Numbered from the stretch's first letter, positions 3,383-64,000 are shown. The stretch is 64,000 nt of DNA from Tubiluchus corallicola (GCA_030141605.1 JAQGDQ010000023.1:124001-188000), one strand, 5' to 3'. Notes: generated from the letters alone by a model not told the origin. Numbers and translations are program-made.

Positions 3383-3506
3383 GTAACAACGACGATATCT
3401 GGGCAACAGCAGCAGCAGCAACAACAGTGACAGCAACAGCAACAGTAGTAGCAACAGCAGCAGCTGTAGCTACAGCGATAGCAAAAGCAGTAACAGCAAC
3501 AGCAAT

Positions 3507-3545
<39 letters not shown>

Positions 3546-14349: not shown

Positions 14350-14830
14350 AAAATTATAGCGATGATTCGTGAAAGAACGCAAGTATCTCAGTAGTTTGCT
14401 TGCAACAGAAGACGACATTATCAAGACAGAAGATAGTGTCACTATCAGCATATACAAATACAAAAAACTCACTAAAGGTTTTGAGGATAGGAATATTTCT
14501 TTGGAAACAAAAATTAGAATATTCTTAGTCTTAGTTGAAACTATACTTTTGTACAACTCTAAGCTCTGGACTTTAAAAGCAAATCATAAAGCTCAAATTG
14601 ATGGGTTCAAAGGAGAAATTACAGAAACATTTTGAGTAAAAGATGGTCAAAGAAAATCTCAAATAAAAATCCGTGTGAAAAAATAAAAGAACCTTGGACA
14701 AGAAAATTAAAAAAGGCGCCGTTTAAGATAGATTTGGTATATGCTTAGACTACCTGATGATAATCCAGGGAAGATAGCTCTTCAACAAGCCATAGAAAAA
14801 GCAAGAAAACCTACAGAAAGATTTAAATAC
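14350..14830 (+). mobile_element. Decayed RTE-type LINE 3' fragment
   Basis: KYLSS..., ISLETKIRIFLVLVETILLYNSKLWTL, RRRLR*IWYMLRLPDDNPGKIAL. Confidence 0.8.
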
Positions 14831-24956: not shown

Positions 24957-25038
<82 letters not shown>

Positions 25039-25127
25039 TAACGACAATGACAATGACAACGACAACAACAACAACAATAACAATAATAATAATAATAACA
25101 ACAACAACAACAACAACAGTAATAATG
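24957..25127. repeat. (AAT)n/(AAC)n microsatellite
   Basis: Directly visible. Confidence 0.95.
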
Positions 25128-26820: not shown

Positions 26821-27287
26821 CAGTGATCAAAGCAGTCCAAATTTCATCCTTTATTGAAGGCTAGTAAATATTTCTTTACCTGGTTTATTGCAATTGTCAC
26901 TATAGTTAGTGTAGTGTTCAAAATGAATACGGCACTATAAATTTAGCTATTTTTATTTTTGGCCTTACATTTCTTTAAATTTGTATTACAATTTAGCGTA
27001 CATATCAATGCACACAAACACTTCACGTTTGCGCTTTTGTCTGAGCAGCAGCAGCAGCGTTATAGTTGACGGAATTCTCAAGGAGAGTCGCACTAACGGG
27101 AAAAACCGCAGAAAACAGTGTCAATTATTAGCATCATTCCCTGCTGGACAATGCATGTCAAGTTGTAAAGAAATTACACATCCAGTAATTAGAATTAGTT
27201 ATTAAAACTGGGAAATGATGTCAAGTCACGCGCAAAACATCTAATTTTAATCGTAATTAGCGCAAGTAATTGTTTCGTAAGTTACTT

Positions 27288-29186: not shown

Positions 29187-29440
29187 ATTGTATTGTACTG
29201 CACTGCACTGTATTGTATTGTATTGTATTGTATTGTATTGTATTGTATTGTATTGCATTGCATTGCATTGCATTGCATTGCATTGCATTGCATTGCATTG
29301 CATTGCATTGCATTGCATTGCATTGCATTGCATTGTATTGTATTATTGCATTATATTGTATTGTGTTGTGCTGTATTGTATTGCATTGCATTGCATTGTA
29401 TTGTATTGTACTTTACTGTTGCGTAGTGTATTGTGTTGCA
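29187..29440. repeat. Pentanucleotide tract (TATTG)n/(CATTG)n
   Basis: Directly visible. Confidence 0.95.
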
Positions 29441-29917: not shown

Positions 29918-30353
<436 letters not shown>

Positions 30354-31889: not shown

Positions 31890-32044
<155 letters not shown>

Positions 32045-33153: not shown

Positions 33154-33440
33154 ATTATTGTATTGTATTGTGTTGTATTGCATTGCAGTGCATTGTATTG
33201 TACTGTACTGCACTGCACTGCACTGCACTGTACTGTACTGTACTGTACTGTACTGTACTGTACTGTACTGTACTGTACTGTACTGTACTGTACTGTACTG
33301 TACTGTACTGTACTGTACTGTACTGTACTGTACTGTACTGCACTGCACTGCACTGCACTGTACTGTACTGTACTGTACTGTACTGTACTGTACTGTACTG
33401 TACTGTATTGTATTGTATCGTACTGTATTGTGTTGTATTG
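33154..33440. repeat. Pentanucleotide tract (TACTG)n/(CACTG)n/(TATTG)n
   Basis: Directly visible. Confidence 0.95.
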
Positions 33441-38870: not shown

Positions 38871-39319
38871 TACCTCTAATTTTAAGCAAGTCTTACCCTA
38901 TAATTAGACAGCTGATAGTGGCTTTTTCACTACACTGATGTTTTCCTCAATCCTTCTCACACTAGTACAATATCCAGCTTTCCTTTGCAACACGTACACA
39001 AGCAGCTATTAGGTTGCGCGGTTGTTAGGAAGCCTAACTTCTCTGGTTGGCTAATTACGTATGACGTCACTGAGCCTTGAGTACACTGTGCAACATAAAC
39101 TGATAAAGGTGAAGGAATGCAGGGTTTAGTTAATGCACGTGTTTCATTTATTTCAGAAAGATTGTAAAAATAATGATGATAGTTTTATATTCTTGCTAAC
39201 TGGGTGCCCATAGATTTTATAACTTGATCTTTAGAATTGATAACCGTTTGAAAGCCTACTTCACTATTGAAATTGTACGAACTGATTCATATCTGATCGA
39301 TGTTAACCCATCTAATAAC

Positions 39320-39540
39320 TGTCTCACTTTTAGCATCAATTCTACCCGGCGTCACGGATACAAATTGTTTCTGCCGCGTTGTTGTAAAATTGTAAGACAA
39401 AATAATTTGTTCGTACGTGCAATATCGTTGTGGAACGCACTACCAGAAGAATCTGTTCAGTCAAATTCACTTAAAGCTTTCAAATCTGCCTTAGACAGAT
39501 ATAATTTTAATGACAAATTGAAAATATTTCGTTAACTTGT
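39320..39540 (+). mobile_element. CR1-type LINE 3' end fragment
   Basis: TRRHGYKLF...RQNNLFVRAISLWNALPEESVQSNSLKAFKSALD. Confidence 0.8.
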
Positions 39541-39906
39541 GTATTTTTTTCAGTTAATTTGTGGCGTACTTTAGTTTTGTTTCGTGTGTGTTTTCTACTA
39601 TAACTATTTTATTTTTTTACTGCAATTCACTCTTATGCGGATTGTAATCATATGTAAAGCTCTATTTTAATTAACTAATATTTTTAATTTTAGTGTAGTT
39701 GTGTGAATACTAACTAAAGTCACAAAAAAACGCGCTGGCTGTCAAATGTGCAAATAAATTTAATAACGCTAAACTGTAAAGTGTCTTTTCCTTTGAAACT
39801 TCTAAATATATTTTACAATTGTCAGCACTTTCAAACCTAGAACGAATTTTAGCTGTAGTCAGTACTGGTGTTTCTAACTGGACAGTTGAAGAACTATAAA
39901 AAATGT

Positions 39907-39926
39907 TTTATTACCAGAAATTTATT
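39907..39926 (-). terminator. Candidate polyadenylation signals of the giant gene
   Basis: Two AATAAA on the minus strand (39907-39912, 39921-39926) ~200 nt past the stop; weak in AT-rich DNA. Confidence 0.4.
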
Positions 39927-40125
39927 ATTTTCAATAGCTATACAAATTATTTCATTTTTCACTGTACATGACACGAAACGATCCTAATATGAAAGATGAT
40001 ATGATATCTAATAAATTATCGTTGCTTAAAATAAATAATATAATTTGGACTTTATAAGTCTACATAATTTTGAATATTAAGTGAACTCGCAGCTTTCACA
40101 TAGTTGTTTCATAAGCACAAAAAAG

Positions 40126-43100
40126 TCAATCAAGATCTTGAGTATCGCGACGTCTCTTAATACATTTTTTCTGTAAAATGCAAAAAATTCCAAAGCAGCA
40201 AGCAATTGCAGCGAGATAAATCCATACAAGTTTTTTGAAAGACGGAGCTTCCTCTTCTACGGTCTCCTTTCCAGTATCATCACCAGCAAAAACTCCTATT
40301 TCTTCTAAAGAAACACATTTGATAAGTTTTGGACAATTCTTTACCTGTGCACCACAATCTGCACTTGTTAGCACACACTTTTGGCTGTTTTTTGGACAAG
40401 CAACACGTTCGCATGGAGAAGCTTTGCATTTACAGATGGGGCAAAGAGTTTCAGCATGACTCTCATACCCATGTAGGCACTCGACTGCACATTCACTGCT
40501 TACACCACAGTTAACATCTCTAGCAACGGAGCATCCAATGAAGGGTGAACCTGATGTTTGCATTGTACCTGGAATTTTCTGCCCTTCGCTTGTAACGCAC
40601 CACAATCGCTTACTATGTAAGTTAATTTGCACTGACTGATAATCACCATTACTCAAACACTGTGGCCGGTACAGTTCTTCAGACATAATTCGTGTCTCTG
40701 TTCCTGAGAGCACGTCGAAGTTTGCTTGTTCCACTTGGCAGGGAGTTAAATGCGGAGCAGAGCAAACAGAACCACAGTTTATAAAATGACAACATTTTTT
40801 CTCTGCTACGCAATCTCCGTCATTGTCACAGAAATGTCTAGGACATTGTTTAACAGTAAACGTTTCTTCACTAGGGCAACTTCCAACCTTTCTTACTTTC
40901 TCAAAAAAACATTTCGCAAGTTTTGGACACACTCCAGATCGACATTGTACATTGATGGCTTTACACTGCTGTGACGGCAGACATTTGATTTTTTTACATG
41001 GAGACGGTTTGCATTTACAAGTAGGACAAAGATTAGTCCTCTCTACTGAATAACCAAAAATACATTTCGTGGGGCAGTTTGTTTCATCAAAGTCGCATAA
41101 ACTTTGACCAGTGACCAAAGGAATTGAGCACACCTTCCCGCAACGTAAACTCTCGCAGCACAGTTCTGTTTCATTACAGTCATTATCATGGTTGCAAAAA
41201 TGTTCTTGACACTCATCAAAATAATATTCTATAGAATTCCGGCACATCCTATTACTCCGTCTAGCTTGTATACACATTGTTGCTTGTAAAAAGTCTGTGG
41301 ACAGTTTTGTTCCGGGAATAGGATAACCCTGTTTCGTAACACACCAAGCATAACCACCCCTGGTATGAAACTGGAACGGACTATATTCTCCATTGCTTAG
41401 ACACTTCGGTGGATGAACGTAATCTAGTAGGTGTGACTCTAACAGTAAGTGGTCACCATTTGCCTGCTCAACCTGGCACTTGGTAAATATTGGTATGGAA
41501 CAAATTCGGCCACATGATTTAGATGAACAGCATTTTTCTTCTGCAGGACAATCCACATCAGTGTTACATGATAATCTGGGGCACTCACTCAAAGTCAGCT
41601 TATTAGAATCAGGACAGGTGCCTACTTTGTTTCTTTGAATGTCTTCGCATCTTACAAGCGCAGGACAAGAAATGCCTCCACACTTTACAATAACTGTATT
41701 GCAAACCTGCGAACCAGGACAGACGACACCTTCACATGGAGAATGTTTACACTTACAAAAAGGACAAAGTGTCTCAGCGTCAACTGCATATCCGAAGTCA
41801 CACTTTAGACTACACTCTTTTATATTGTAAGCACATAACTGCAAGCCCGCAAGCATTGGAATTGAGCACACATTACCACATCGAGCAGACGGACAACATT
41901 TTTCTAATCCTTGACAATCTGAATCTTTGACACATTTATGAAGAGGACACTTTCTCAAGCCAATTTTGTCAATACATATGCCAGGCTTTAGTTCAAACAT
42001 TAATGGGCTATAGCAAACAGTGCCACATGTGTCCAAATAACAACATTTTTTATCTGCAGGACAGTCAATGTCATTATAGCATGATTTATTAGGACAAAAC
42101 TTATCGTCTGGGTGTAAAAACGCAGGACAAATTCCTTCTTTATTTAGCGATAACATTGAAGTAGGGCAATTAGAACTGCAGGTTTTGAAACTACAGCATC
42201 TTTTCCCTTTTGGACATTCCTCGTCACATTGGTCACCAAAACACTTTAGATTTGTACTAGATTTATCACAACCTTTGTGCTCACTCACATTAAGTACAGC
42301 TTTATTGCACGTTGTTGCACATATTTGAATATCACAACACTTTTGCTCACCAAAGCATTCAGCATGTGAAACACAAGATTTTCCTACAGATTTCTTGACT
42401 TCACATAGCTCAGAATCATTGCACACAACAAAATTATTCAAACTTAACACTGGAGTAGAACAGACACTACCACATGCAACAAAATGACAACATTTCTGGT
42501 TTGATGGACAACTGATATCATTTCTGCATGACTGAGACGGGCACTGTGCCGCACTAAAATATCCTGGTTGGTGACACAGTCCAGGTTTATTAATATTTAG
42601 TAAAGGAGTAAAACAAACATTGCCACATACATCAAAATAACAGCACTTTTGGTCTCCCAAACAATCACTGTTTGTCTGGCAAGACTGTACTGGACACCCA
42701 TCTCGTTGAGTAAATGTATCAGAATTATAACAAACCCCAGCTTTGCTTCTTGTTGCTTCACAATCAAAGGGCGGTGAGTCTGCTAGCTGCTTGGTTCCTG
42801 GAATTGGATGACCCTCTGCTGTCACACACCAAGAGTAGCCTCGGTAAAACTGCATTGCACTATAATAACCAGTACTGGAACATTGAGGTCGATAAACATT
42901 GGCAGTAAACTGATCTTGGTATTGTAATTTCAGATCAACATTTGATTGTTCTATTAAGCATGCTGTTAACACAGTAACCTGACATACCATCCCACAGGAG
43001 CTAAAATTACAACATTTTCTTGCAGGTCCACAATCAATGTCTTTATCACATTTTTTTCTGGGACACAGCTTGCCTTCAAATGCTCTAAAATCTTGACAAA

Positions 43101-46100
43101 TTCCTTTAATTTCTAATAAGTTCTTTGTATCAATCACTTGTATGAGTGTAGGCATGCACTTTCCAAGTTTTGGACAAAAAGCCATTCCACACCCCGGAAA
43201 GTCAATTGTTCTACATTCTTCTGATGGAGGACATTTGACTCCTTCACATGGCGAAGGCTTACATTGACAGGTTGCACAAAGAGTAATATTGTTCACAGCG
43301 TACCCATAAATACATGAAAGCTGACAGTCATCTAGGTTAACATCACAGGTCAATGAAGTATTATATTCAGGGTCAGTACATACCATACCACAAACATCAA
43401 AATGACAACATTTCTGTTTGTCAGGGCAATCTACATCATTGCTACAAGAATTATGTGAACAACTTCTATTGCTAGATGAGTTTGGACAAAGTCCTGACTT
43501 TACTATGGATACAATAGGCATCACACAGACACTCCCACAATCACCAATATTGCAGCACTTCTCCTCCAATGGACATTCAATGTCATTGTAACAAAACTGA
43601 GATGGGCAAGACAATTTTTTATATTTTAATGACTGAGGACAAATTCCTCGCTTGTTGACTGAGAGAATTGACTTGAAACAGACATTCCCGCAGCCAATAA
43701 AAGAACAACACTTTTCGTCATCTGGGCAATCACTGTCAACTTTGCAAAATTTGCTTGGACATTCACTGTCTCTAAGTTTTTCAAAATTGTGACAAACTCC
43801 TGGTTTAGGATCATTTGGTATGGGGTCTAAGCAAACAAAGCCACAGTGTTTGAGCCAACAGCATTTTTCTTTTTGTGGGCACTCAGTATCACTGCTACAA
43901 GACTGAGGTGGGCACATTACAATATCCACATTCTTTACATTGTAGCATATACCAGGTTTGTTTGCAGTTGTTATTAAAGGAGACGAGCAAACCCATTCAC
44001 ACTCTCTGAATCTACAACATTTTTGCAAATTTGGACAATCGATATCATTAATGCAGGTCTGCAATGGACAGTCAGTTTTTTGATAATAGTGAGGAGCCAA
44101 ACAAATGCCAGGTTTGTTCACATTCAGTAGGGGACTAGAACACACACTCCCACATTCATCATTCCAACAACATTTATCATTCACTGGGCAATCACCATCG
44201 TTGTTACACTGGTATGAACAGTTAGTAAGATCAGTATCTTGAAAACTGTAGCAAGAGCCCTTTTTGGCTGTTATTGCAGCACAGTTAGGAGAAGACGATA
44301 CTAGACTCTTTTTTGTCCCAGGAATTGGCTCTCCTTTTAAAGTTACGCACCAGAAATAACCAGTACTGTCATCTATTTGAATTTGGCTATACATGCCATT
44401 ATTATCACACTGTGGGATATACATTTCACTTGTTTTTCCAGTACTTAACAATTTGTAAAGGGCACTAGCTCGATCAACTTGGCATGCCGTTAATATAGGA
44501 GTAATGCAAATCCACCCAGAATTTTCAAAATAGCAGCACCTTTCTTCTGCTTGGCAGCTTATATCATTGTTACAAGGCTGATGCAGAGAATCATTTCTGG
44601 CGAAGCTATAGGTGTTTGGACATGTTCCAGGTTTAGTTGGAGCATCAAAACATTTTGGAAGTTTTGGACAATAATTATAATCACAGTCCAAATCTACAAC
44701 GCTACACACCTGTGACCTATGACATTTTATCCTTTTGCAAGGAGAATCATTACAGCCATAAGTAGGACACAGAGTTTCATTATGAATTTGATATCCATAA
44801 ATGCACTTTTTTGGGCAGCCTTTTTCTTTAAAATGACATTCGTTTAGCCCAAATCTTGCTGGTTGTACACATATTTTCCCACATGATAATATATTGCAGC
44901 ATTTTTGCCTGCCAAAGCAATCAACATCATTCTGACATGGCTGGCCAAAACAGTCATCATTAGGAATTTTCACGGGACAAACTCCTTCTTTTATACCAGA
45001 TAATATAGGAGTGCAGCAAACAGTGCCACAACGATTAAATACGCAGCACTTCTCTGAAAATTTGCAATCAATGTCGTTTTGGCAAGTTCGTGAAGGACAA
45101 CTACTAGCATAAAATGTATTAAAATCTGGGCAGATACCTGGATTGTTTAAAGACAGTATGGGGACAGAGCAAACATTTCCACATTCATCTGAATGACAAC
45201 ACTTTTCTCCAGCTGAACAATCAAAATCATTTTTGCACAACTGCAGTGGACACTTCGCAAAGGTTTTGATATTAGAACAAATACCTGGTGTGCTTCTTAC
45301 CATGCTGGCTGCATAACAGACATGTCCACATCCCTTGAAAACGCAGCATTTCATAGACGAAGGACAGTCAAAGTCACTGCTGCATTGTTGCTTTGGACAA
45401 TCTTTACCTTTCAACTTATTAAACACATGGCAAGTACCAGGTTTGCTCACAACTGTGATGGGGTCAAAGCAAACTTGTCCACAAGCAAAAAACTGGCAAC
45501 ACTTCTTGCTGTCTTTGCAATAAATATCATTTGTGCATGGCTGAGGTGGGCACTTCTTTCCATCGAAATAATCTGGAGGCTGGCACACTCCTGGTTTGTT
45601 AATACTTAATAAAGATGTGTGGCAAACTTTTCCACAATGCTCAGTACCACAGCATTTTTCTTCTGCTGGACAATCGACATCTGTTGCACAAGAATATTTA
45701 GGACAGCCAACGCTACTATAATTTACAATACCATGACAAATTCCAGGTTTTTCCACTAAAGCAGCACAGTCAAATGGTAACAAACCTGGTGACCTTTTTG
45801 TACCTGGTACTGGTACTCCATCTTCTGTAACACACCAAGAGAAATTTTTATGAGTTTGTGAAGGATTGTAGTCTCCATTCTTCAGGCAGAGTGGTCGGTA
45901 GATTTCTGATAAATCTTTAGTCATACTTTGCATTCTGAAATTAAATATTGTTAATTCGGTTTGGCAAGCAGACAACATAGGGGTTGCACATACAGCCTCA
46001 ATTTTCTCAAACTGACAACACTTCTCCTCTGCAGGACACTGACTGTCAACTACACAACGCTTCGGCAAACCAGTTGCGGTCATATTTTGGGGACATTTTC

Positions 46101-49100
46101 CGACTTTTGTCACAACTAAACACCTTGCCAGTTTCGGACAGAAATCACTGTGGCAGTGCACATCGACGAGAACACATTCCTCTCCTTCACCGCATTTAAT
46201 AGCATTGCACGGAGAAGGTTTGCAATTGCAAGTGGGGCAAAGTGTTTGATTATCAAATACATAACCATGTACACATTTAACTGAACAATCTTCAATAGAC
46301 ACTTCACATAACTGATGTCTAATACCAATCACTATAGAGCATACTTTTCCACAAGAAATCGATGTGCAGCACTTCTGCACACCAGGACAATCAACATCTG
46401 CATTACAGCTACGATTATTACAATCAGTAATATTAACTTTGTCAGGGCACGTGCCTGACTTTCTTACATTAAGCAATGGCTCAGAACAAACCATTCCACA
46501 ACCTGCAACTTGACAGCATTTCTGCTCCAGAGGACACTCTATGTCATTAGCACAAGCCTGAATCGGACATCTGGCAGAACTGGTGGTAAGAGTAGGACAA
46601 AGACCCGGTTTGTTTTCAGAATATATAGGCAATGAGCAAATGTTTCCACATAGCTCAGAAAAACAGCACTTTTGGTTTCCAGAACAGTCATCATCTACAA
46701 CACAGGACTCAGTAAGACATTCTCTGTTTTCGTGTTTATCATCATTGGGACATAAGCCCTTTTTATTACCAGTAAACATAGGAGTAAAACAGACTTTGCC
46801 ACAGGCCTCAAAATGGCAACACTTGTCCCGAAGCGGGCAGTCTATATCATACTTGCAGTGAGCACTTGGACATATTCTCATGTCAAATGTTTGTGAATTA
46901 TGACATAACCCTGGTTTACTTACAACTGGAAAAGGATTGACGCAGACGCTTCCACAGTGACCAAACCGGCAGCACTTTTGTGAACCGTGACAATAAATAT
47001 CATTGCTGCAAGACTGAGGGGGGCAATTACTTTCAGAGAGCATAGCTGGCTCGGGACAAATTCCAAGTTTATTAAGCGACAATAGAGGTGGAATACAAAC
47101 TTTTCCACATGCATCAAATTGACAGCAGATTTCAGATACTAAGCAGTCACTATCATTGCTACACAAGCTTGAAGGACATTTGCCCTTTTCAAAATAATTA
47201 GCTTCATAGCAAAGTTTTGCATAGTTGCCTAATGAATGACAACTTATGAGAACTGGATCATATAATTCCAACTTTTGCTTTGAACCTGGTACAGGAAAAC
47301 CGTCCTTGTCAACACACCAGAAATCACCAAGGCTTTTATTAATTTGAACAGGATTATAGTAACCCTTGTTATGGCAATTGGGCTGAAAAATATCTGTAGT
47401 TTCATTATCAAAATCTGATATTACATTCATAAGTTTGAAATTAGCTTGTTCAATCTGACAGGCAGTGAGTACTGGAGTTACACAAACTCTTTCACAGCAT
47501 CTCTCTTCTGCGGGGCATTCAAAATCATCAACACATGGCTGACCGGAAAAGGTACTATCAAACGCTGCACTTCTCCTTGGACACACTCCTGGTTTAAAAA
47601 AGTTAGAGCACTCGGCTAGTTTAGGACAAAATTTGAAGCCACAATCAACATCAACCAACTCACATTGTTGTGAAACCAAACATATTACATCTTGGCACGG
47701 AGAAGGTTTACAGTCACAAGTTGGGCACAGAGTATTATTATCTACTATATAACCATGAATGCATTTTTTAGGGCATTTATCCAAGCTAATAGAACATTTG
47801 TGCGAATCTGTGATTTGATCGAACTTACAGACAATGTACAATGATTCTGGTGACTGTTTTGATCCCGGAATTGGAATACCATTCTTGTCAACGCACCAGG
47901 AATACCCTGTTTTATGCGACTTTTGGATAGGTTTAAAGTCGCCGTTATCCAAACATTCAGAAATTACTGAAACAGAAGGTTTGAACCGAGCATTAGCATA
48001 TTCTATTTGACAAGGTGTTAATACAGGTATAACACAGGTGCTACCACATGCTGCAAAGTAGCAGCAAAGTTCCACAACTGCACACTCCCTGTCAGAAGAA
48101 CAAGTACGAACAGGACAAGAACTGCTATTTAATAATCTTGGAGATGGACAAACTCCAGCTTTCTTCACTCTCTTACACTTAGCAAGTTTTGGACAAAAAG
48201 AAGCACCACAATCAGTGTCTACAACATCACATATCTGTGATTCTCTACATTTCACACTAAAACAAGGAGAAGGTTTGCATGTACAAGTAGGGCACAATGT
48301 TTCTGGGTCATTCTCATAGCCATAGATGCAATCCTTTTGGCAACTGTAGATACTAAAGTTGCATGCACTGTTAAATGGAATGACACACACTTGGCCACAA
48401 GGAAAAATTTGGCAACACCTTTTTTCTCCCAGACAGTCAAGATCATTTCTACAAACCTGTGGAGGACATACTCTGCCATTGAAAACAGATGGACAAATCC
48501 CCGGCTTTTCACCAACTGTGACTGGTTTATAGCAAACATTACCACACTTTCTAAAAGTGCAACATTTCTCTTCTGCAGGACAGTGAATATCATTATAACA
48601 TGATGCAATCGGGCATTTTCTGAAATCGAACTCATCATATCTATAGCATATACCAGGTTTATTTATGGATAATAAAGGTTTCATGCACACGTTTCCACAC
48701 TTACTAAAGTGGCAACATTTTTCAAGTTCATAGCAGTCTGTGTCAATCGTGCACATGTTGGTGGGACACTTTATGCCATAAAAGTAATTCTCATCATGGC
48801 AAATTCCTGGTTTAATTCCCAATATCAATGGTTTATAGCATATGTTACCACACAGTGTAAAATAGCAACATTTCTCTTCAAAGGGGCAATCGATATCAAA
48901 ACTACAAAGTGTAGACGGGCAGCTTTTACCGTCAAATTCATCAGATCTGTAGCACGATCCTGGTTTCTTAGTAGATTTTAAGGGAGAAATACAAATGTGC
49001 CCACAAGTTACAAAATAGCAACACTTTTGTTGTTTTAAACAATCAACATCATTATTACATTGAGGCAAATTTTGGCATTCACTTTTATTGTATGGAGGCA

Positions 49101-52100
49101 GAATAGGGCAAATGCCTGGTTTGTTCATGTTTAGTAATGGAGTGTAACAAATCTTCCCACATGCATCAAAATAGCAACATCTCTTATCTCCTGGGCATTC
49201 ACTATCACTGCTACAAAAATGAGTTGGACACTCGCTACTTTTCAACATACTGGAACTATGACAAATTCCAATTTTATTCCTTGCAACATTACAATCATAC
49301 GGCAAGTGTCGACCTTGCCGCTTTGTTCCAGGAATTGCAATGCCATTATAGGAAACACACCAAGAAGAACTGAAAATTTCATCAAACTGTAATGGTTTAT
49401 AATGGCCATTATTCAGACATTTTGACTTGGCTAGTCTTGGCAGTTCAGCACGTGTTCCTAACATGTGTAAATTTAAATTTGCTTGTTCAATTTGGCATGC
49501 GGTCAGTTCGGGTGAAACACAGACTCTTTTACAATTACGAAAAAAGCAGCACTTTTCCTCTCCTGGACAACCTGCATCCGTTCTACAAAGCTGAGATGGA
49601 CAGCTTACTTGAAGAAATTTGTCTGATCTTGGACACTTTCCTTCCTTTACATTTTCCATGCAGCTAGCCAGGTAGGGACAAAAAAGACTCCCACATTTCT
49701 TTTTGGTTAATTTGCATGTCAGTGAACCCGGGCATATAACATTGTCACATGGAGATGGTTTACAGTCACATGTAGAGCAAAGTGTTTTAGTATCTTTCAT
49801 ATATCCAAATATACATTTCTTCTTACAGTTTTCTACACTAAATTTGCAAGATTCCTGTAAACTGCTAACTACTGATATCAAGCAAACATTTCCACAAGAC
49901 ATAGTTCTACAACATTTTTGCAGTCCAGGACAATCAATATCATCAATGCAAGACTGTGATTGACACTCAACATCATTTACAAGGTTTGGGCAAGTACCAG
50001 GCTTTACACCATGATAAAACAATTTGCTACAGATAGTTCCACATTGTGCAGAGAAGCAGCATTTCTCTTCAGAGGAGCAATCTATGTCATTGTAACAGGT
50101 CTGGTTTGGACAAGAATATCCAAAGCCAATATCTGTAAAACAAATCCCGTGCCTTTCCTCCGACAATACTGGAGAAGAGCAAACACTACCGCAAGTATCA
50201 AACCAACAACATTTTTCTTTAGCTGGACAATCCTTATCAAGCTCACAAAATCGGCTTGGGCACTCAACATTGTCAAACTTACTAGGTTCATAACAATGAC
50301 CAGGCTTATTTCCATTCATCATAGCCGCATAGCACACTTTACCACACCCATCAAAATAACAGCATTTTTGCTTATCGGGACAGTTAATATCAGTACTACA
50401 ATACTTTGAAGGACACTCTAAATTCATTAATCTACTTGTATTATGGCATCTACCTGGTTTACTCTCAATTGTAATTGGAGACACACAGACATACCCACAT
50501 GCAAAAAACCTGCAACATTTTTTCTCTCCATTGCAATCATCATCAGCAGTGCATACTGCATTTGGGCACTCACTTTTGCCAATGTAATCTGGTACTGGAC
50601 AAAGTCCAAGTTTTTTTGAGCTTAACACAATGGAAGTGCAAACCTTCCCACATGCACCAATTATGCAACACTTGTGTTCAGGTAAACAATCATTATCGCT
50701 GCTGCATGACATACGTAGATGGTCAAGTGCAGAACAATTAATGTCTGGAAAATTTTCAGTGATGTTAGGACAAATACCCGGTCTCCTTATAAAAGTACTG
50801 CAATCAGAAGGTAAAATTCCCTTTTGCCTTTTAGTTCCAGGAATTGCATGACCGGATTGCAAGACACACCAAGTGAAACCATGGGCATCATGAAATTGCA
50901 AGGGACTATAGCCTGTTTGGGAACACTCTGGTCGATCAATTCCTGGATCAACTCCTAACAAGTGAAGATCAGCATTTGCTTGCTCGATTCCACATACCGT
51001 TAATGATGAAGATATGCAACTCAAACCATACTCAGGAACAGCAGTATTCAAGCGATCAGGTAAGCACCTTGTCTGAGAGCAGGTGAGCGTATAACCTAAT
51101 AAACAATTACAACTGTAATAATTTATACCATCCACACAAGTTTCATCCTTTAAACAAGGATTAGATGCACAATCATCTATATTTGTTTCACAGTAAGTGC
51201 CTGTATAACCTAGTTGACAACTACACTTAAAAGAGTTAACAAAATTTGTACATGTTGCATCATTCAAACAATGGTTAAGGTTGCAAAAATCAATGGTTTC
51301 TTCACAATTGATGCCTGTATATCCTGAGGCACAGTTACAAACATATAAATTGATACTGTCTGTGCATATTGCACCATTCAGACAAGGTTTAGATTTACAT
51401 TCATCTATATTTATTTCGCAGTTTATACCTGCGTAACCTGATACACATATACATGTAAAGGACTGCAAACTTCCCACACAGGTTGCTCCATTAAAACACA
51501 GCCCACACTCAGAGACACTTACTGGATCCTTACAAGTTGAACCTGTATAACCGAAAGCACATATACAAGAATATGAATGTCTATTATCCAAGCATGTTGC
51601 ACCATTTAAACAAGGTTTTGAATCACATTTGCCTGTATTTAATTCACAATTGTCACCACTATAACCAGGTACACACAAGCAGTGGTAAGAATTTATACTG
51701 TCAACACATGATGCACTATTTGAACACGGACTTGAGGCACATTCATCGATATTTGTCTGACAGTAAATGCCAGTATAACCAGCAGCACATATGCATCTGT
51801 ATGAATTCACATCATCTATACACATTGCTCTATTCAGACAAGGACTTGAAACACACTCATCAATGTTTACTTCACAGGTGATGCCTATGTAACCTGACAC
51901 ACAGATGCAGTTATAAGAGTTCACGTCATCCAAACACAGCGCACTATTTAAGCATGGATTTGAGGAACACTCATCAATGTTTATTTCACAGTTGATGCCT
52001 ATATAACCTGCGACACATGTACAGTTATATGAGTTAACGTCACCTAAGCATGTTGCACCATTTAAGCATGGACTAGAGGCACATTCATCAACGTTTATTC

Positions 52101-55100
52101 CACAGTTGGCACCCGAATACCCAGCCACACATGTGCAGCTGTATGAGTTTACATCATCTAAGCACACTGCACCATTCAAGCATGGACTTGAGGCACATTC
52201 ATCTACATTTATTTCACAGGTGACACCTGAATAACCAGCCACACATGTGCAGTTATATGAGTTACCGTCACCTAAGCATATTGCACCATTTAAGCATGGA
52301 CCAGAGGCACATTCATCAATGTTTATTTCACAGTTAGTTCCTGCATAGCCTGCCACACATGTGCAGTTATATGAGTTTACATCATCTAAGCATGTTGCAT
52401 CATTTAAGCATGGACTTGAGACACATTCATCAATATTTATTTCACAGTCAATGCCTGCATAACCTGCAACACATGCACAGTTATATAAGTTTACATCATC
52501 TAAGCATGTTGCATCATTTAAGCAAGGACTTGAGGCACATTCATCAATGTTCATTTCACAGTTGATGCCTGTATAACCTGCCACACATGTGCAGTTATAT
52601 GAGTTTACATCATCTAAGCATGTTGCACCATTTAAGCATGGACTTGAGGTACATTCGTTTATATTTATTTCACAGTTGGCACCTACATAACCAGCCACAC
52701 ATGTGCAGTTATATGAGTGTACATCATCTAAGCATAGTGCACCATTTAAGCATGGACTTGAGGCACATTCATCTACATTTATTTCACAGGTGACACCTGA
52801 ATAACCAGCCACACATGTACAGTTATATGAGTTACCATCACCTAAGCATATTGCACCATTTAAGCATGGACTAGAGGCACATTCATCAACGTTTATTTCA
52901 CAGTTAGTTCCTGCATGGCCTGCCACACATGTGCAGTTATATGAGTTTACATCATCTAAGCATGTTGCACCGTTTAAGCATGGACTTGAGACACATTCAT
53001 CAATATTTATTTCACAGTCAATGCCTGCATAACCTGCAACACATGCACAGTTATATGAGTTTACATCATCTAAGCACGCTGCACCATTTAAACATGGACT
53101 TGAGGCACATTCGTCAATGTTTGTTTCGCAGTTATTGCTTGCGTAACCTGCAACACATGTGCAGTTATATGAGTTAATATCATCTAAGCAAATTGCATCA
53201 TTTAAACATGGACTTGAGGCACATTCATCAATGTTTATTTCACAGCTGATGCCTGTATAACCTGCCACACATGTGCAGTTATATACGTTTANNNNNNNNN
53301 NNNNNNNNNNNNNNNNNNNNNNNNNNNTGCAGTTATATGAGTTTACATCATCTAAGCATGTTGCACCATTTAAGCATGGACTTGAGGCACATTCATCAAT
53401 GTTTATTTCACAGTTGATGCCTGTATAACCTGCCACACATGTGCAGTTATATGAGTTTACATCATCTAAGCATGTTGCATCATTTAAGCATGGACTTGAG
53501 GCACATTCATCTACATTTATTTCACAGTTGATGCCTGTATAACCGGCCATGCATGTGCAGTTATATGAGTTTACATCATCTAAGCATGTTGCACCATTTA
53601 AGCACGGACTTGAGGCACATTCATCTACATTTAATTCACAGTTGACACCTGAATAACCAGCCACACATGTGCAGTTATATGAGTCTACATCATCTAAACA
53701 TGTTGCACCATTTAAGCATGGACTTGAGGCACATTCATCAACGTTTATTTCGCAGTTCAAACCTGTATAGCCAGCCATACATGTGCAGTTATATGAGTTT
53801 ACATCATCTAAGCATGTTGCACCATTTAAGCACGGACTTGAGGCACATTCATCAATGTTTATTTCACAGTTGTTGCCTGTATAACCTGCCACACATGTGC
53901 AGTTATATGAGTTTACATCATCTAAGCATGTTGCACCATTTAAGCACGGACTTGAGGCACATTCATCTACATTTAATTCACAGTTGACACCTGAATAACC
54001 AGCCACACATGTGCAGTTATATGAGTCTACATCATCTAAACATGTTGCACCATTTAAGCATGGACTTGAGGCACATTCATCAACGTTTATTTCGCAGTTC
54101 AAACCTGTATAGCCAGCCATACATGTGCAGTTATATGAGTTTACATCATCTAAGCATGTTGCACCATTTAAGCACGGACTTGAGGCACATTCATCAATGT
54201 TTATTTCACAGTTGTTGCCTGTATAACCAGCCACACATGTGCAGTTATATGAGTTTACATCATCTAAGCATGTTGCACCATTTAAGCACGGACTTGTGGC
54301 ACATTCGTCAATGCTTATTTCACAGTTGATGCCTGTATAACCAGCCACACATGTGCAGTTATATGAGTTTACATCATCTAAGCATGTTGCACCATTTAAG
54401 CATGGACTTGAGGCACATTCATCAATGTTTATTTCACAGTTGATGCCTGTATAACCAGCCACACATGTGCAGTTATATGAGTTTACATCATCTAAGCATG
54501 TTGCACCATTTAAGCATGGACTTGAGGCACATTCATCAATGTTTATTTCACAGTTGATGCCTGTATAACCTGCCACACATGTGCAGTTATATGAGTTTAC
54601 ATCATCTAAGCATGTTGCACCATTTAAGCACGGACTTGAGGCACATTCATCTACATTTATTTCACAGTTGAAACCTGTATAACCAGCCAAACAAGTGCAG
54701 TTATATGAGTTTACATCATCTAAGCATGTTGCACCATTTAAGCATGGACTTGAGGCACATTCGTCAATGTTTGTTTCACAGTTGATGCCTGTATAACCAG
54801 CCACACATGTGCAGTTATATGAGTTTACATCATCTAAGCATGTTGCATCATTTAAACATGGACTTGAGGCACATTCATCTACATTTATTTCACAGTTGAT
54901 GCCTGTATAACCGGCCATGCATGTGCAGTTATATGAGTTTACATCATCTAAGCATGTTGCACCATTTAAGCATGGACTTGAGGCACATTCATCAATGTTT
55001 ATTTCACAGTTGTTGCCTGTATAACCTGCCACACATGTGCAGTTATATGAGTTTACATCATCTAAGCATGTTGCACCATTTAAGCATGGACTTGAGGCAC

Positions 55101-58100
55101 ATTCATCAATGTTTATTTCACAGTTGATGCCTGTATAACCTGCCACACATGTGCAGTTATATGAGTTTACATCATCTAAGCATGTTGCACCATTTAAGCA
55201 TGGACTTGAGGCACATTCATCTACATTTATTTCACAGTTGACACCTGAATAACCAGCCAAACATGTGCAGTTATATGAGTTTACATCATCTAAGCATGTT
55301 GCACCATTTAAGCATGGACTTGAGGCACATTCGTCAATGTTTGTTTCACAGTTGATGCCTGTATAACCAGCCACACATGTGCAGTTATATGAGTTTACAT
55401 CATCTAAGCATGTTGCATCATTTAAACATGGACTTGAGGCACATTCATCAATGTTTATTTCACAGTTGATGCCTGTATAACCTGCCACACATGTGCAGTT
55501 ATATGAGTTTACATCATCTAAGCATGTTGCACCATTTAAGCATGGACTTGAGGCACATTCATCAATGTTTATTTCGCAGTTGAAACCTGTATAGCCAGCC
55601 ATACATGTGCAGTTATATGAGTTTACATCATCTAAGCATGTTGCACCATTTAAGCACAGACTTGAGGCACATTCATCTACATTTATTTCACAGTTGACAC
55701 CTGAATAACCAGCCAAACATGTGCAGTTATATGAGTTTACATCATCTAAGCATGTTGCACCATTTAAACATGGACTTGAGGCACATTCGTCAATGTTTAT
55801 TTCACAGATGATGCCAGTATAACCTGCCACACATGTGCAGCTATATAAGTTTACATTATCTAAGCACGTTGCATCATTTAAGCATGGACTTGAGGCGCAT
55901 TCATCTACATTTATTTCACAGTTGATGCCTGTATAACCGGCCACACATGTGCAGTTATATGAATTTACATCATCTAAGCATGTTGCACCATTTAGGCACG
56001 GACTTGAGGCACATTCATCAATGTTTGTTTCACAGTTGATGCCTGTATAACCTGTCACACATGTGCAATTATATGAGTTTACATCATCTAAGCATGTTGC
56101 ACCATTTAAGCATGGACTTGAGACACACTCATCTACATTTATTTCACAGTTGAAACCTGAATAGCCAGCCATGCATGTGCAGTTATATGAGTTTACATCA
56201 TCTAAGCATGTTGCACCATTTAAGCACGGACTTGAGGCACATTCATCTACATTTAATTCACAGTTGACACCTGAATAACCAGCCACACATGTGCAGTTAT
56301 ATGAGTTTACATCATCTAAGCATGTTGCATCATTTAAACATGGACTTGAGGCACATTCGTCAATGTTTATTTCACAGTTGATGCCTGTATAACCTGCCAC
56401 ACATGTGCAGTTATATAAGTTTACATTATCTAAGCACGTTGCATCATTTAAGCATGGACTTGAGGCACATTCATCTACATTTATTTCACAGTTGATGCCT
56501 GTATAACCGGCCACGCATGTGCAGTTATATGAGTTTACATCATCTAAGCATGTTGCACTATTTAAGCATGGACTTGAGGCACATTCATCCACATTTATTT
56601 CACAGTTGATGCTTGTATAACCTGTCACACATGTGCAGTTATATGAGTTAACATCATCTAAGCATGTTGCACCATTTAAGCATGGACTTGAGGCACATTC
56701 ATCAATGTTTATTTCACAGTTGTTGCCTGTATAACCTGCCACACATGTGCAGTTATATGAGTTTACATCATCTAAGCATGTTGCACCATTTAAGCATGGA
56801 CTTGAGGCACATTCATCTATATTTATTTCACAGTTGGCACCTGAATAACCAGCCACACATGTGCAGTTATATGAATGTACATCATCTAAGCATGTTGCAC
56901 CATTTAAGCATGGACTTGAGGCACATTCATCTACATTTATTTCACAGTTGACACCTGAATAACCAGCCAAACATGTGCAGTTATATGAGTTTATGTCATC
57001 TAAGCAAGTTGCACCATTTAAGCATGGACTTGAGGCACATTCATCAATGTTTATTTCGCAGTTGAAACCTGTATAGCCAGCCATACATGTGCAGTTATAT
57101 GAGTTTACATCATCTAAGCATGTTGCACCATTTAAGCACGGACTTGAGGCACATTCATCTACATTTATTTCACAGTTGACACCTGAATAACCAGCCACAC
57201 ATGTGCAGTTATATGAGTTTACATCATCTAAGCATGTTGCACCATTTAAGCACGGACTTGAGGCACATTCATCTACATTTATTTCACAGTTGACACCTGA
57301 ATAACCAGCCACACATGTGCAGTTATATGAGTTTACATCATCTAAGCATGTTGCACCATTTAAGCATGGACTTGAGGCACATTCATCAATGTTTATTTCA
57401 CAGTTGTTGCCTGTATAACCTGCCACACATGTGCAGTTATATGAGTTTACATCATCTAAGCATGTTGCACCATTTAAGCATGGACTTGAGGCACATTCAT
57501 CTACATTTATTTCACAGCTGACACCTGAATAACCAGCCACACATGTGCAGTTATATGAGTTTACATCATCTAAGCATGTTGCACCATTTAAGCATGGACT
57601 TGAGGCACATTCATCAATGTTTATTTCGCAGTTGAAACCTGTATAGCCAGCCATACATGTGCAGTTATATGAGTTTACATCATCTAAGCATGTTGCACCA
57701 TTTAAGCACGGACTTGAGGCACATTCATCTACATTTATTTCACAGTTGACACCTGAATAACCAGCCAAACATGTGCAGTTATATGAGTTTACATCATCTA
57801 AGCATGTTGCACCATTTAAGCATGGACTTGAGGCACATTCTTCAATGTTTGTTTCGCAGTTGATGCCTGTATAACCTGTCACACATGTGCAATTATATGA
57901 GTTTACACCATCTAAGCATGTTGCACCATTTAAGCATGGACTTGAGGCACATTCATCAATGTTTATTTCACAGTTGATGCCTGTATAACCTGCCACACAT
58001 GTGCAGTTATATGAGTTTACATCATCTAAGCATGTTGCACCATTTAAGCATGGACTTGAGGCACATTCGTCAATGTTTGTTTCACAGTTGATGCCTGTAT

Positions 58101-61100
58101 ACCCAGCCACACATGTGCAGTTATATGAGTTTACACCATCTAAGCATGTTGCACTATTTAAGCATGGACTTGAGGCACATTCATCCACATTTATTTCACA
58201 GTTGATGCCTGTATAACCAGCCACACATGTGCAGTTATATGAGTTTACATCATCTAAGCATGTTGCATCATTTAAACATGGACTTGAGGCACATTCGTCA
58301 ATGTTTATTTCACAGTTGATGCCTGTATAACCTGCCACACATGTGCAGCTATATAAGTTTACATTATCTAAGCACGTTGCATCATTTAAGCACGGACTTG
58401 AGGCACATTCATCTACATTTATTTCACAGTTGATGCCTGTATAACCGGCCACGCATGTGCAGTTATATGAGTTTACATCATCTAAGCATGTTGCACCATT
58501 TAAGCATGGACTTGAGGCACATTCGTCAATGTTTGTTTCACAGTTGATGCCTGTATAACCTGCCACACATGTGCAGTTATATGAGTTTACATCATCTAAG
58601 CATGTTGCACCATTTAAGCATGGACTTGAGGCACATTCATCAATGTTTGTTTCACAGTTGATGCCTGTATAACCTGCCACACATGTGCAGTTATATGAGT
58701 TTACATCATCTAAGCATGTTGCACCATTTAAGCATGGACTTGAGGCACATTCATCTACATTTATTTCACAGTTGATGCCTGTATAACCGGCCATGCATGT
58801 GCAGTTATATGAGTTTACATCATCTAAGCATGTTGCACCATTTAAGCACGGACTTGAGGCACATTCATCTACATTTATTTCACAGTTGACACCTGAATAA
58901 CCAGCCAAACATGTGCAGTTATATGAGTTTACATCATCTAAGCATGTTGCACCATTTAAGCACTGACTTGAGGCACATTCATCTACATTTATTTCACAGC
59001 TGACACCTGAATAACCAGCCACACATGTGCAGTTATATGAGTTTACATCATCTAAGCATGTTGCACCATTTAAGCACGGACTTGAGGCACATTCATCTAC
59101 ATTTATTTCACAGTTGACACCTGAATAACCAGCCAAACATGTGCAGTTATATGAGTTTACATCATCTAAGCATGTTGCATCATTTAAACATGGACTTGAG
59201 GCACATTCGTCAATGTTTATTTCACAGTTGATGCCTGTATAACCTGCCACACATGTGCAGCTATATAAGTTTACATCATCTAAGCATGTTGCATCATTTA
59301 AGCACGGACTTGAGGCACATTCATCTACATTTATTTCACAGTTGATGCCTGTATAACCGGCCACGCATGTGCAGTTATATGAGTTTACATCATCTAAGCA
59401 TGTTGCACCATTTAAGCATGGACTTGAGGCACATTCGTCAATGTTTATTTCACAGTTGATGCCTGTATAACCAGCCACACATGTGCAGTTATATGAGTTT
59501 ACATCATCTAAGCACGTTGCACTATTTAAGCATGGACTTGAGGCACATTCGTCAATGTTTATTTCACAGTTGATGCCTGTATAACCTGTCACACATGTGC
59601 AGTTATATGAGTTTACATCATCTAAGCATGTTGCACCATTTAAGCATGGACTTGAGGCGCATTCATCTACATTTATTTCACAGTTGATGCCTGTATAACC
59701 TGCCACACATGCGCAGTTATATGAGTTTACATCATCTAAGCATGTTGCACCATTTAAGCATGGACCTGAGGCACATTCATCAATGTTTATTTCACAGTTG
59801 ATGCCTGTATAACCTGCCACACATGTGCAGTTATATGAGTTTACATCATCTAAGCATGTTGCACCATTTAAGCACGGACTTGAGGCACATTCATCTACAT
59901 TTATTTCACAGTTGACACCTGAATAACCAGCCAAACATGTGCAGTTATATGAGTTTACATCATCTAAGCATGTTGCACCATTTAAGCATGGACTTGAGGC
60001 ACATTCATCAATGTTTATTTCACAGTTGATACCTGTATAACCAGCCACACATGTGCAGTTATATGAGTTTACATCATCTAAGCATGTTGCATCATTTAAA
60101 CATGGACTTAGGCACATTCCGTCAATGTTTATTTCACAGTTGATGCCTGTATAACCTGCCACATGTGCAGTTATATGAGTTTACATCATCTAAGCATGTT
60201 GCATCATTTAAGCATGGACTTACACATTCATCTACATTTATTCACAGTTGATGCCTGTATAACCGGCCACACATGTGCAGTTATATGAGTTTACATCATC
60301 TAAGCATGTTGCACTATTTAAGCATGGACTTGAGGCACATTCATCCACATTTATTTCACAGTTGATGCTTGTATAACCTGTCACACATGTGCAGTTATAT
60401 GAGTTTACATCATCTAAGCATGTTGCACCATTTAAGCATGGACTTGAGGCACATTCATCAATGTTTATTTCGCAGTTGAAACCTGTATAGCCAGCCATAC
60501 ATGTGCAGTTATATGAGTTTACATCATCTAAGCATGTTGCACCATTTAAGCACGGACTTGAGGCACATTCGTCTACATTTAATTCACAGTTGACACCTGA
60601 ATAACCAGCCAAACATGAGCAGTTATATGAGTTTACATCATCTAAGCATGTTGCACCATTTAAGCACGGACTTGAGGCACATTCATCTACATTTATTTCA
60701 CAGTTGATGCCTGTATAACCGGCCATGCATGTGCAGTTATATGAGTTTACACCATCTAAGCATGTTGCACTATTTAAGCATGGACTTGAGGCACATTCAT
60801 CCACATTTATTTCACAGTTGATGCTTGTATAACCTGTCACACATGTGCAGTTATATGAGTTAACATTATCTAAGCATGTTGCACCATTTAAGCATGGACT
60901 GGAGGCACATTCATCAATGTTTATTTCGCAGTTGAAACCTGTATAGCCAGCCATACATGTGCAGTTATATGAGTTTACATCATCTAAGCATGTTGCACCA
61001 TTTAAGCATGGACTTGAGGCACATTCATCAATGTTTATTTCGCAGTTGAAACCTGTATAGCCAGCCATACATGTGCAGTTATATGAGTTTACATCATCTA

Positions 61101-62355
61101 AGCATGTTGCACCATTTAAGCACTGACTTGAAGCACATTCATCTACATTTATTTCACAGTTGACACCTGAATAACCAGCCAAACATGTGCAGTTATATGA
61201 GTTTACATCATCTAAGCATGTTGCACCATTTAAACATGGACTTGAGGCACATTCATCAATGTTCGTTTCACAGTTGATGCCTGTATAACCGGCCACACAT
61301 GTGCAGTTATATGAATTTACATCATCTAAGCATGTTGCACCATTTAGGCATGGACTTGAGGCACATTCATCAATGTTCGTTTCACAGTTGATACCTGTAT
61401 AACCTGTCACACATATGCAGTTATATGAGTTTACATCATCTAAGCATGTTGCACCACTTAAACATGGACTTGAAGCACACTCATCTGTGTTTGTTTGGCA
61501 CCTAGTTCCCTCGTAACCAGAAAAACAAGTACAAGCATAGTAACCAAACCCATTAGTACAATCCCCATGAAGGCAAGGATTTGAATTACACTCATCGAGT
61601 GAATCTGTTTCGCACCACTGTCCAGTGACACCTGCTAGACAGGCACATATAAATGAACCAGGAATGTTGGTACATGTTCCATTATGTAAACATGGTTCCC
61701 ATACACACTCATTGAAATCTGTTTCACAATAGAAGCCTGTAAAACCCAGTTCACACTGGCACAAATAGACGCCTAAAAAATTGTTTGGATTTGTCCCGCA
61801 TGTACCATTTTGGCACATGTTATTGATACATGGATCCCCTCTTACAGATGGTACAGAAGTGACCCAAAATTCAAATCCTGTATGGCTGGTGTGTACACCA
61901 TCTGTCTGAAATCTTGTGTGAATATAGCCAACCGCTTTGTCCTTTGTTACATACCTCGTAAAAGGTGTTCCATAATGCTCACAAACCTGTTCATCCCACA
62001 CAACTGGATCACCATGTCCTATCTCAATATATTCATTAGGGCAGGCAAGATCTAACTTTATAAATCGAAGCAGGTAAAGGTTATACTTTGGTCCTGTATC
62101 ATTAGGGTATGAAAATCTGATGTAATTAAAACAGTTATGAGCAGGTACATTTTCGTAATTGCCAGGGGGTGAAGATATGACTGTTGCACCTAATTCTGTT
62201 GTCAGAATATTATCGGATTTATTATTTTTAAATACTGTCGAGCACATTTTCTGAAGAGGATAATATGGCCACGATAATGCATATATTACATTTACTGGAG
62301 AGTAGCACAAAAGTAAGTTAAACAGTAATCCAAAGTATTTATGTTGACTTAACAT
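40126..62355 (-). CDS. Giant single-exon type I membrane protein: SP-CUB-(cbEGF)~94-[TY/WAP/antistasin-like]x9-TM, ~7,400 aa
   Basis: ORFs 60238-62355 and 40126-60162 are in the same frame and joined by continuous EGF repeat sequence with compensating indels; signal peptide [26 protein letters not shown]; domains recognised from Cys spacing and motifs; terminal TM with basic stop-transfer residues. Confidence 0.92.
40174..40230 (-). other. Transmembrane helix followed by a 15-aa cytoplasmic tail
   Basis: [36 protein letters not shown]. Confidence 0.8.
40315..51000 (-). repeat. Nine protein super-repeats of TY-(WAP)6-antistasin-like-6Cys-WAP (six full, three shortened)
   Basis: TY: C.IEQ...P.C...G.Y...Q....WCV...G..IPGTK; WAP: KPGxCP..C..C..DxDC...KCC...CGxVC; antistasin-like: C...C.(Y/F/H)GY.....LCPTC.CKPSPC. 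Confidence 0.9.
51079..61836 (-). repeat. Tandem array of ~94 calcium-binding EGF repeats (114 bp / 38 aa)
   Basis: Consensus [38 protein letters not shown]; count is span divided by 114. Confidence 0.97.
53292..53327. other. Assembly gap (36 N) inside the EGF array
   Basis: Directly visible. Confidence 1.
61850..62245 (-). other. Divergent CUB domain
   Basis: C...ISSPPGNY...[28 protein letters not shown]...TGF motifs with four Cys. Confidence 0.75.
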
Positions 62356-62829: not shown

Positions 62830-62985
62830 CAGGATTTGCATAACCTGAAATACATACATGTGCAATTACAGGAAAGTGTGACATCGAAACATACATGTTG
62901 CACCATGTAAACAGGGACTTGGAGCTCATTCATCAATGTTCTTTTCATAGCAGATGCCTTTATAACCTGCAATACATGTGAATCA
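62830..62985 (-). pseudogene. Decayed EGF-repeat coding remnant upstream of the giant gene
   Basis: Reads FTCIAGYKGICYEKNIDE*APSPCLHGATC, then frameshifted CNCTC and CISGYA. Confidence 0.75.
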
Positions 62986-64000
62986 AAATCAGCTAAACTA
63001 AACTGATTTAGGGTTTTAACCACATTTAACCATATAAATCTTCCTTAGGGGGAGTTTGCAAATGAACTCAGAAGCGATTTTGGTGGCTACTGTCTATTTA
63101 TCAACCTGGCCAGGCTTTTGCTGACATTGATTGCTTAATTCCCAAACACTGTGACCACTCAGCTGTTATATATAATGTCTCTATTTGTAATTTCTACACA
63201 TCCATTTACTTAATAGTTAGTTAAGTTAAATAAGCAATAACACTATTTACATGTATGTATACATACAAAATAGCCACCGGTAGTGCAGAGATTTCACACA
63301 ATACTTATATTATATGTAGAAACTAAATGATGGGTAATAGATATCAAAAATTTTCATTTGTTTACTGTTTAGACCCAGATGTCATGAATACCTTTCATCC
63401 AATATAAATTGCTCCTTAGTTGCACTAGAATATACCATATTCTCTTGCTTTAAATTACAAATTTTATTAAATTATAAATATGATGTTTCATGTAAACAAG
63501 TAAGATAAATTTCTTAACAGAAAAAATATCTAAACTATTGACATTTGATAGTACACTCATTAAATCCAGGTTCATTTGGCAGATGGACAGGTGCATTTAC
63601 CACCTAAGCACCTGTTCCCTAGTTATAATCAGCATGAGGAATGCGGGAAATATTCTGGCTAGTTCTCACTTAAACTTTACGTTTTAACTTTTTACACTTC
63701 TCAGTCGATTTCTCAACAACAACAACATCTGCAATATGGTTTGATTGATCCAGATTTGAACCCTGGATCTCTTTGCCAACAATATATTAAATTTTGAGAA
63801 ATCTGTTCCTATAGTAAAACCAGTCACTTTCTTAATACATATAAAATGACACTATAAATTACTTAAAATAAAGACATAATGTTAAATTTTTAAATTTTAT
63901 ATAGCAAGAACAATATCCATTTCATACTAAATGAACTATATATTTTTTTCTGAAGATGACTGCTAGTATGCAGTGAAAAGGTCGATTATTTTAATAAAAA

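Follow-up and report, generated by a model that had tools for sequence, protein, structure and literature searches.

A candidate surface-coat tether in Tubiluchus corallicola, predicted from a 22-kb frame of CUB-like, EGF and TY/WAP/antistasin-like modules

What would a protein do that carries a CUB domain at the tip of a very long EGF stalk and, near the membrane, dozens of modules whose folds include those of protease inhibitors? The question is raised by a 64,000-nucleotide stretch of DNA from Tubiluchus corallicola (GCA_030141605.1 JAQGDQ010000023.1:124001-188000; hereafter the window), in which an initial annotation, made from the sequence alone, had described a ~7,400-amino-acid (aa) membrane protein of this kind. 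Translation of the minus-strand frame from 62370 to 40126 yields the architecture described: from an ATG at 62355 to a TGA at 40126-40128 there are 7,409 codons, with a predicted product of ~791 kDa that is 14.5% Cys, and the order from N to C terminus is possible signal peptide, CUB-like domain, ~94 EGF repeats, a block of TY, WAP, antistasin-like and six-Cys modules, transmembrane helix and 15-aa tail (Table 1). The single frame, the domain order and the helix thus agree with the initial description, but the frame is not intact, for it contains six in-frame stops that had been overlooked; a listing of open reading frames (ORFs) splits it into two of the same phase, 710 aa and 6,684 aa long, on either side of the stops at 60181-60240. 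Judging from its modules, we see an even chance that the product is a long, glycosylated, protease-resistant spacer or tether, hardened by disulfides, in an invertebrate cell-surface coat.

Table 1. Features of the frame and its surroundings (positions counted from the first letter of the window)
Feature	Position	Strand	Basis or remark
Eroded relic of the array's EGF repeat, ~480 bp upstream of the ATG	62837..62991	-	75-79% identity to array units; stop and frameshifts
ATG and putative signal peptide (frame aa 6-31)	62278..62355	-	hydropathy; overlaps acceptor-like site
Divergent CUB-like domain, 4 Cys	61846..62244	-	ESM Atlas
Tandem array of ~94 EGF repeats of Ca-binding type; unit 114 bp, core units ~92% alike	51055..61842	-	motif counts, repeat analysis, Pfam EGF
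Damaged repeat stretch, six small indels giving six in-frame stops at 60181-60240, frame restored after	60100..60300	-	alignment to majority repeat
36-N gap within EGF array, same repeat on both sides	53292..53327	.	sequence
9 TY (type 1B), 44-45 WAP, 9 antistasin-like and 9 six-Cys modules	40306..51054	-	motifs, Pfam, profiles, Foldseek
Transmembrane helix, aa 7381-7399	40174..40230	-	top hydropathy window, Kyte-Doolittle (KD) 2.6
Basic, Tyr-free cytoplasmic tail of 15 aa, with the stop codon	40126..40173	-	translation
Two AATAAA hexamers, ~200 bp past the stop	39907..39926	-	possibly chance in AT-rich DNA

We found that the EGF array is close to the size first proposed, with 92 intact C4-C5-C6 motifs, 90 full six-Cys matches, 85 Ca-binding D/E/N-x-D/N-D/E-C motifs and ~94 unit lengths of 114 bp. 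Consensus patterns that we take to be those for O-glucose, O-fucose, O-GlcNAc and Asp/Asn hydroxylation are present in 82, 79, 77 and 86, respectively, of the 90 EGFs, and 74 units carry an N-C-S/T sequon. The EGF units are under purifying selection: the six Cys are invariant in all 81 regular units, and the ratio of non-synonymous to synonymous differences (pN/pS) is 0.25 among 54 distinct core units. Among the 81 regular units 70 are distinct, and near-identical units are dispersed along the array, which suggests that the array is undergoing homogenisation, with selection on its length. At the other end of the protein, the transmembrane helix is the strongest hydrophobic window and the tail is 15 aa long, as the initial annotation had it; no R-x-K/R-R site occurs anywhere in the frame. 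A tail so short, and without Tyr, argues against a role in signalling or endocytosis. The earlier proposal of a surface coat that is tethered to the membrane and has a long rod open to glycosylation agrees with this anatomy: a helix, a short tail in which no signalling motifs occur, and glycosylation consensus in most EGF units.

A mechanism can be proposed for such a coat protein. The predicted topology is that of a type I membrane protein. One EGF domain spans ~3 nm, and the array, if stiffened by Ca2+, would form a rod of a few hundred nm on which up to four sugar sites per EGF could build a hydrated brush. The CUB tip might bind a partner in the matrix or on a cell, or a second molecule of the same protein. 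The WAP/TY/antistasin block would mostly lack canonical inhibitor sites and could serve as a base hardened by disulfides, comparable to what is seen in cocoon and adhesive proteins. In an apical coat, rod and base together would keep the CUB tip away from the cell by a few hundred nm.

Parts of this arrangement have parallels in known proteins. Dumpy, Uninflatable, Crumbs and Notch are type I membrane proteins of apical surfaces that are likewise very large and carry EGF arrays; Dumpy, a mechanical tether, would be a functional analogue of the window protein. Fibropellins, found in the apical lamina of sea urchins, have a CUB domain on the N-terminal side followed by tandem Ca-binding EGFs, and so resemble the tip and stalk described here; in contrast to the window protein, with its transmembrane helix and TY/WAP block, they are secreted, have far fewer EGFs and carry an avidin domain. 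Consistent with the initial annotation, which had noted the absence of the Notch LNR and ankyrin, Crumbs laminin-G and fibropellin avidin domains, Pfam scans found none of these; ZP, C-type lectin and F5-8 likewise gave no match, the scans for all but avidin covering aa 6-710, 757-1457 and 3028-7414 (the remainder is the 114-bp repeat). For the base, parallels occur in structural or adhesive secretions: in the excerpts available of the sources, a leech cocoon protein has six antistasin and Notch-like repeats, sea-star Sfp8 has WAP and antistasin repeats, and a limpet mucus protein with such modules is interpreted as a protective inhibitor by the authors who describe it (PMC9382459, PMC7333891, PMC7851590, PMC12838937). 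The leech protein and Sfp8 share repeated antistasin-like modules with the window protein, as judged from published descriptions; unlike it they are secreted, and those excerpts report no CUB-EGF stalk or TY domain for them.

The C-terminal block is larger than the ~60 domains first estimated. Motif and profile counts confirmed the modules that had been proposed one by one: 9 each of TY, antistasin-like and six-Cys, and ~45 WAP (44 cores, plus at least one degenerate core recognised by eye). This amounts to ~72 small disulfide modules, among which the order antistasin-like, six-Cys, WAP, TY recurs and WAPs form runs of 5-6. Pfam matched EGF, WAP and Thyroglobulin_1 in the frame, while its Antistasin family (PF02822) matched eight of the nine modules at 15.3-19.7 bits, all under the curated cut-off of 21.2 bits. 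An AlphaFold2 model of one unit, in which the modules are confident and their arrangement uncertain (predicted local distance difference test, pLDDT, 80; predicted template modelling score, pTM, 0.48), is consistent with beads on a string. Foldseek searches with this model returned TY and WAP matches only, the folds matching p41, saxiphilin, elafin and SLPI. In the ESM Atlas there was no usable match for the WAP/antistasin stretch. A word-index protein search matched none of 604 candidates with the C-terminal block and one of 1,453 (a turtle papilin-like protein) with the unit profile, each a weak negative.

These folds are the reason to consider a membrane-tethered shield against several proteases, in which TY domains would act on cysteine cathepsins and WAP and antistasin-like modules on serine proteases. 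The TY fold of thyropins (I31) is present in the block by both Pfam and Foldseek, relatives are catalogued as inhibitors by domain content (PMC3407033, PMC5309989), and unusual disulfide patterns are tolerated by thyropins, one of which still inhibits (PMC10889554). Nevertheless, we consider a shield unlikely. Among human WFDC domains, a Cys1-2 interval of 6 residues combined with a Cys2-3 interval of 8 is confined to the antiprotease ones, and a spacing of 3, 4 or 7 may be too small to accommodate an inhibitory site (PMC11408880). By this human criterion the elafin/SLPI-type spacing occurs in 0/44 window WAPs; the C2-C3 spacing is 4 in 37/44, and of the 39 WAPs with a short loop, 31 have C2 followed by Pro. 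Similarly, all nine TY domains are of the four-Cys type 1B, lacking the middle Cys pair that almost every TY segment in the arthropod relatives retains. The antistasin loops, at what we take to be the position of the reactive site, read KKK, QKD, PKK, SVK, PKK, QLS, SLK, PTK and AVE (three start with Pro), as against RMF/RML-type loops in several relatives. Neither Kunitz nor lustrin/WR1 domains gave a Pfam match in aa 3581-7414, and as of 2012 no arthropod thyropin had reportedly been characterised (PMC3407033). Given the WAP spacing, the TY type and the antistasin loops, we do not retain the earlier description of the block as a protease-trapping layer. We note that other large WAP arrays exist, with 32 WAPs in a clingfish protein (P0002) and 20 WAPs and a transmembrane helix in a hemichordate protein (P0003), all with a C2-C3 spacing of 3; this spacing suggests that non-inhibitory WAP rods arose repeatedly.

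Where might the block have come from? A HMMER search with one 520-aa super-repeat against 1.84 billion representatives gave 324 matches at E 0.001, of which 150 were listed. Among the matches listed the majority are plain WAP or TY arrays; these matches also include a group from firefly, horseshoe crab, scorpion and centipede with TY, antistasin, WAP, lustrin and Kunitz domains and, mostly, a C-terminal transmembrane helix. The arthropod group shares with the window protein the order antistasin, six-Cys, WAP, TY, and a profile built from the nine six-Cys modules of the window matches members of this arthropod family at 19-29 bits; among 182 proteins compared, the six-Cys module was found only in the arthropod group and in one Capitella protein (P0073). 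The same recurring order characterises the CG5639-type WAP-antistasin thyropins (Drosophila CG5639, or DmThy-3; Plutella PxSPI44; P0035, P0071, P0144, P0151 and P0180), which, like the window protein, have a six-Cys module after each antistasin and a C-terminal transmembrane helix (seven of eight members tested). They differ from it in length (1,300-2,150 aa), in their mostly type 1A TY domains, in having 2-7 WAPs and no EGF match, and in the presence of lustrin/WR1 domains, and in most members Kunitz domains, in all five relatives scanned. For CG5639 itself the likeness is taken from published descriptions. In the excerpts available, the 'WAP-ATN' thyropin group, in which DmThy-3 is CG5639, is described as common to insects, crustaceans and mites (PMC3407033), PxSPI44 carries the same domain set (PMC5309989), and CG5639 is listed among the misregulated genes in a study of Grainy head (PMC3348937). 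A plausible path would lead from a CG5639-type membrane protein through loss of Kunitz and lustrin domains, amplification of WAPs and gain of a CUB-EGF stalk.

We identified one protein with part of the window protein's own combination. P0038 is a 275-aa ORF from a Logan contig of 1,127 bp; it carries EGF-EGF-WAP-TY within that single frame, with the same WAP spacing, a type 1B TY and the best TY and WAP scores; unlike the window protein it is a short fragment with 2 EGFs. Among the 182 proteins compared, EGF occurs with WAP only in P0038, and with TY only in P0038 and a nidogen-2 cluster. An unrooted tree of 30 rows without outgroup, comprising 8 window WAP-TY units, P0038 and 21 arthropod rows, places P0038 in the same clade as the window units and separates them from the arthropod rows with support 99/99. 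The initial annotation had not recognised the full architecture, and no description of the domain combination was found in open-access full text, subscription journals being outside the scope of that search; the C-terminal module order, on the other hand, is that of the arthropod CG5639-type family, which makes this mosaic less new than the initial annotation implied. A metagenome scan reduced 61 pattern matches to 3 loci, one of which (L001:754-2213) holds pieces of a CG5639-like gene, apparently split by introns into short exons; the others, a short antistasin/lustrin-like ORF (L002) and what appears to be a chance match (L003), were set aside.

Several observations weigh against a coat tether. 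The six stops could be real, and the CUB-side and WAP-side EGF arrays are linked only across the N gap, so that the link between CUB and transmembrane helix depends on it (both matters are taken up below). No full-length relative was found in the HMMER or word-index protein searches. It is possible that the type 1B TY domains provide some protease inhibition, since this type, as described in the excerpt available, keeps the three-loop wedge and resembles p41, and since saxiphilin, which carries a type 1B domain, binds papain 1:2 (PMC6584486). Finally, differences between individuals are mostly non-synonymous. DNA runs X1-X3, from two samples, cover 39500-52500 in all 30 bins, and most of their records reach at least 95% identity. 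From 657 rows of substitutions 40 were examined, and 38 were used after two outside the ORF had been dropped; 24 of the 38 change a residue and 14 are silent, as are 4/4 of those in Cys codons, and none makes a stop (three, one of them a Cys row, fall in the repeat array and are possibly mis-placed). The silent share alone is weak evidence (p 0.03 to 0.23, by expected share), and the non-synonymous majority would equally suit a protein that evolves fast in recognition or defence.

Such a role would be expected of a long-reach adhesion or recognition receptor for gametes, other cells or microbes, whose CUB head would bind a ligand while Notch-type O-glycans tuned the binding. The position of the CUB at the far tip, its divergence beyond any sequence match, the Notch-type O-glycan consensus sites and the many amino-acid differences between individuals or species all favour this. 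We nonetheless think a receptor improbable, in view of the short, Tyr-free tail and of the near-identical, homogenised EGF units, which suggest that length has been kept rather than specific ligand sites.

It is also conceivable, though decidedly improbable in our estimation, that the protein is not made as described. The stops might be real, in which case the locus would encode a secreted CUB-EGF protein of ~705 aa or would be a young pseudogene; alternatively, the N gap might mark a place where two loci were joined in assembly. The damaged repeat departs from the majority repeat by indels of -1, -2, -1, -2, then +1 and -1, inside ~200 bp. Because these six indels cluster in one such stretch while the other 81 regular units have none, and because a 20-kb frame is open downstream, the stops are likely to reflect read error in an unpolished read. 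Splicing-out of the stops was considered and rejected, as the only GTRAG donor in the array, at 60223, lies past the first stop; this leaves a broken gene without that escape, and the decayed EGF relic close by shows that copies die here. Against it, the downstream 6,684-codon frame is not only open but under purifying selection, and the absence of stops and of Cys changes among the substitutions examined points the same way. Among indels, 12 of 26 rows were examined and five fall in the ORF: two, of +6 and +9, are in frame, and three are 1-base losses in X3 only, of which X2 (from the same sample as X3) covers two without the loss and X1 covers all three without it.

As for the gap, it sits inside the repeat, as a false join might, and the EGF repeat count is therefore uncertain. 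The array continues for ~2.2 kb on its WAP side, where, of 12 units compared with those before the gap, 11 differ from one of these by 3-12/114 bases and one by 20, which argues against a false join. The initial annotation had allowed for a mis-join of the EGF and WAP halves at this point, but the gap lies within the EGF array, and the junction between the last EGF and the first TY is bridged by DNA contigs from two independent runs, X1 (50467-51190) and X2 (50913-51296). Since these contigs bridge the junction and P0038 repeats the combination, EGF is joined to WAP/TY independently of the gap. No intron is needed to explain the 22-kb frame, because module spacing is unbroken over 20 kb, and we infer a single exon. 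An origin as a retrocopy is unsupported, no genomic poly(A) tract having been found 3' of the gene. The upstream relic may be what is left of an adjacent copy, or of an ancestor that was longer.

At the N-terminal tip a signal peptide, as initially proposed, is plausible, yet the segment is only moderately hydrophobic (KD 1.6) and overlaps a strong phase-1 splice-acceptor-like site that ends at 62295, the most pyrimidine-rich of 6 in that kilobase; a first exon upstream of 62295 is a possible alternative to the start at ATG 62355. A CUB assignment is suggested by the ESM Atlas, where the domain scores 0.94 to CUB clusters with 10/10 of the best family matches agreeing (one top cluster is for the most part annelid), and a CUB motif is recognisable by eye. 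It drew nothing from Pfam, even at E 10, or from PDB sequences; a single-sequence fold was uninformative (pLDDT 33), and a word-index search confined to proteins of 381-2,000 aa matched 0/172 candidates, a weak negative.

A further proposal can be made, which we offer as speculative and unlikely: that the locus represents a lineage-specific, single-exon family of ~0.8 MDa (unglycosylated) in which a fibropellin-like CUB-EGF stalk was fused onto a CG5639-type TY/WAP/antistasin membrane protein, and in which the 114-bp coding satellite expands and contracts in concert, making stalk length a tunable ruler of coat thickness. Every module and the C-terminal order are known; what is new, within the reach of our searches, is the fusion, along with the size and the apparently single exon. 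Provided that the frame is intact, it would rank with the largest coding sequences that appear to consist of one exon, and would link CUB-EGF coat proteins with the widespread, uncharacterised CG5639-type membrane 'thyropins'. It would also offer a test case for whether inhibitor folds have been redeployed as structural beads and whether a coding satellite can set the thickness of a coat. Genes of this kind are easily missed in annotation through repeat errors like that of the damaged repeat.

Elsewhere in the window, no host gene was recognised in 1-40000, a region in which short exons were not searched for. LINE-like (long interspersed nuclear element) debris lies at 4593-5342, 8010-8279, 11277-11648, 14366-14635 and 39200-39535, an RVT_1 match covering 4932-5342 and the other calls resting on motifs that we take to be diagnostic. 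Simple repeats (pentamer, AAC/ATA, GA/CT) make spurious ORFs at 3403-3762, 24957-25118, 29187-29410, 30135-30230, 31891-32032 and 33156-33440. A 24-bp minisatellite at 27287-28903, with 67 copies and 94% matches, has open frames of ~550 codons on both strands, whose Pfam matches look like low-complexity noise.

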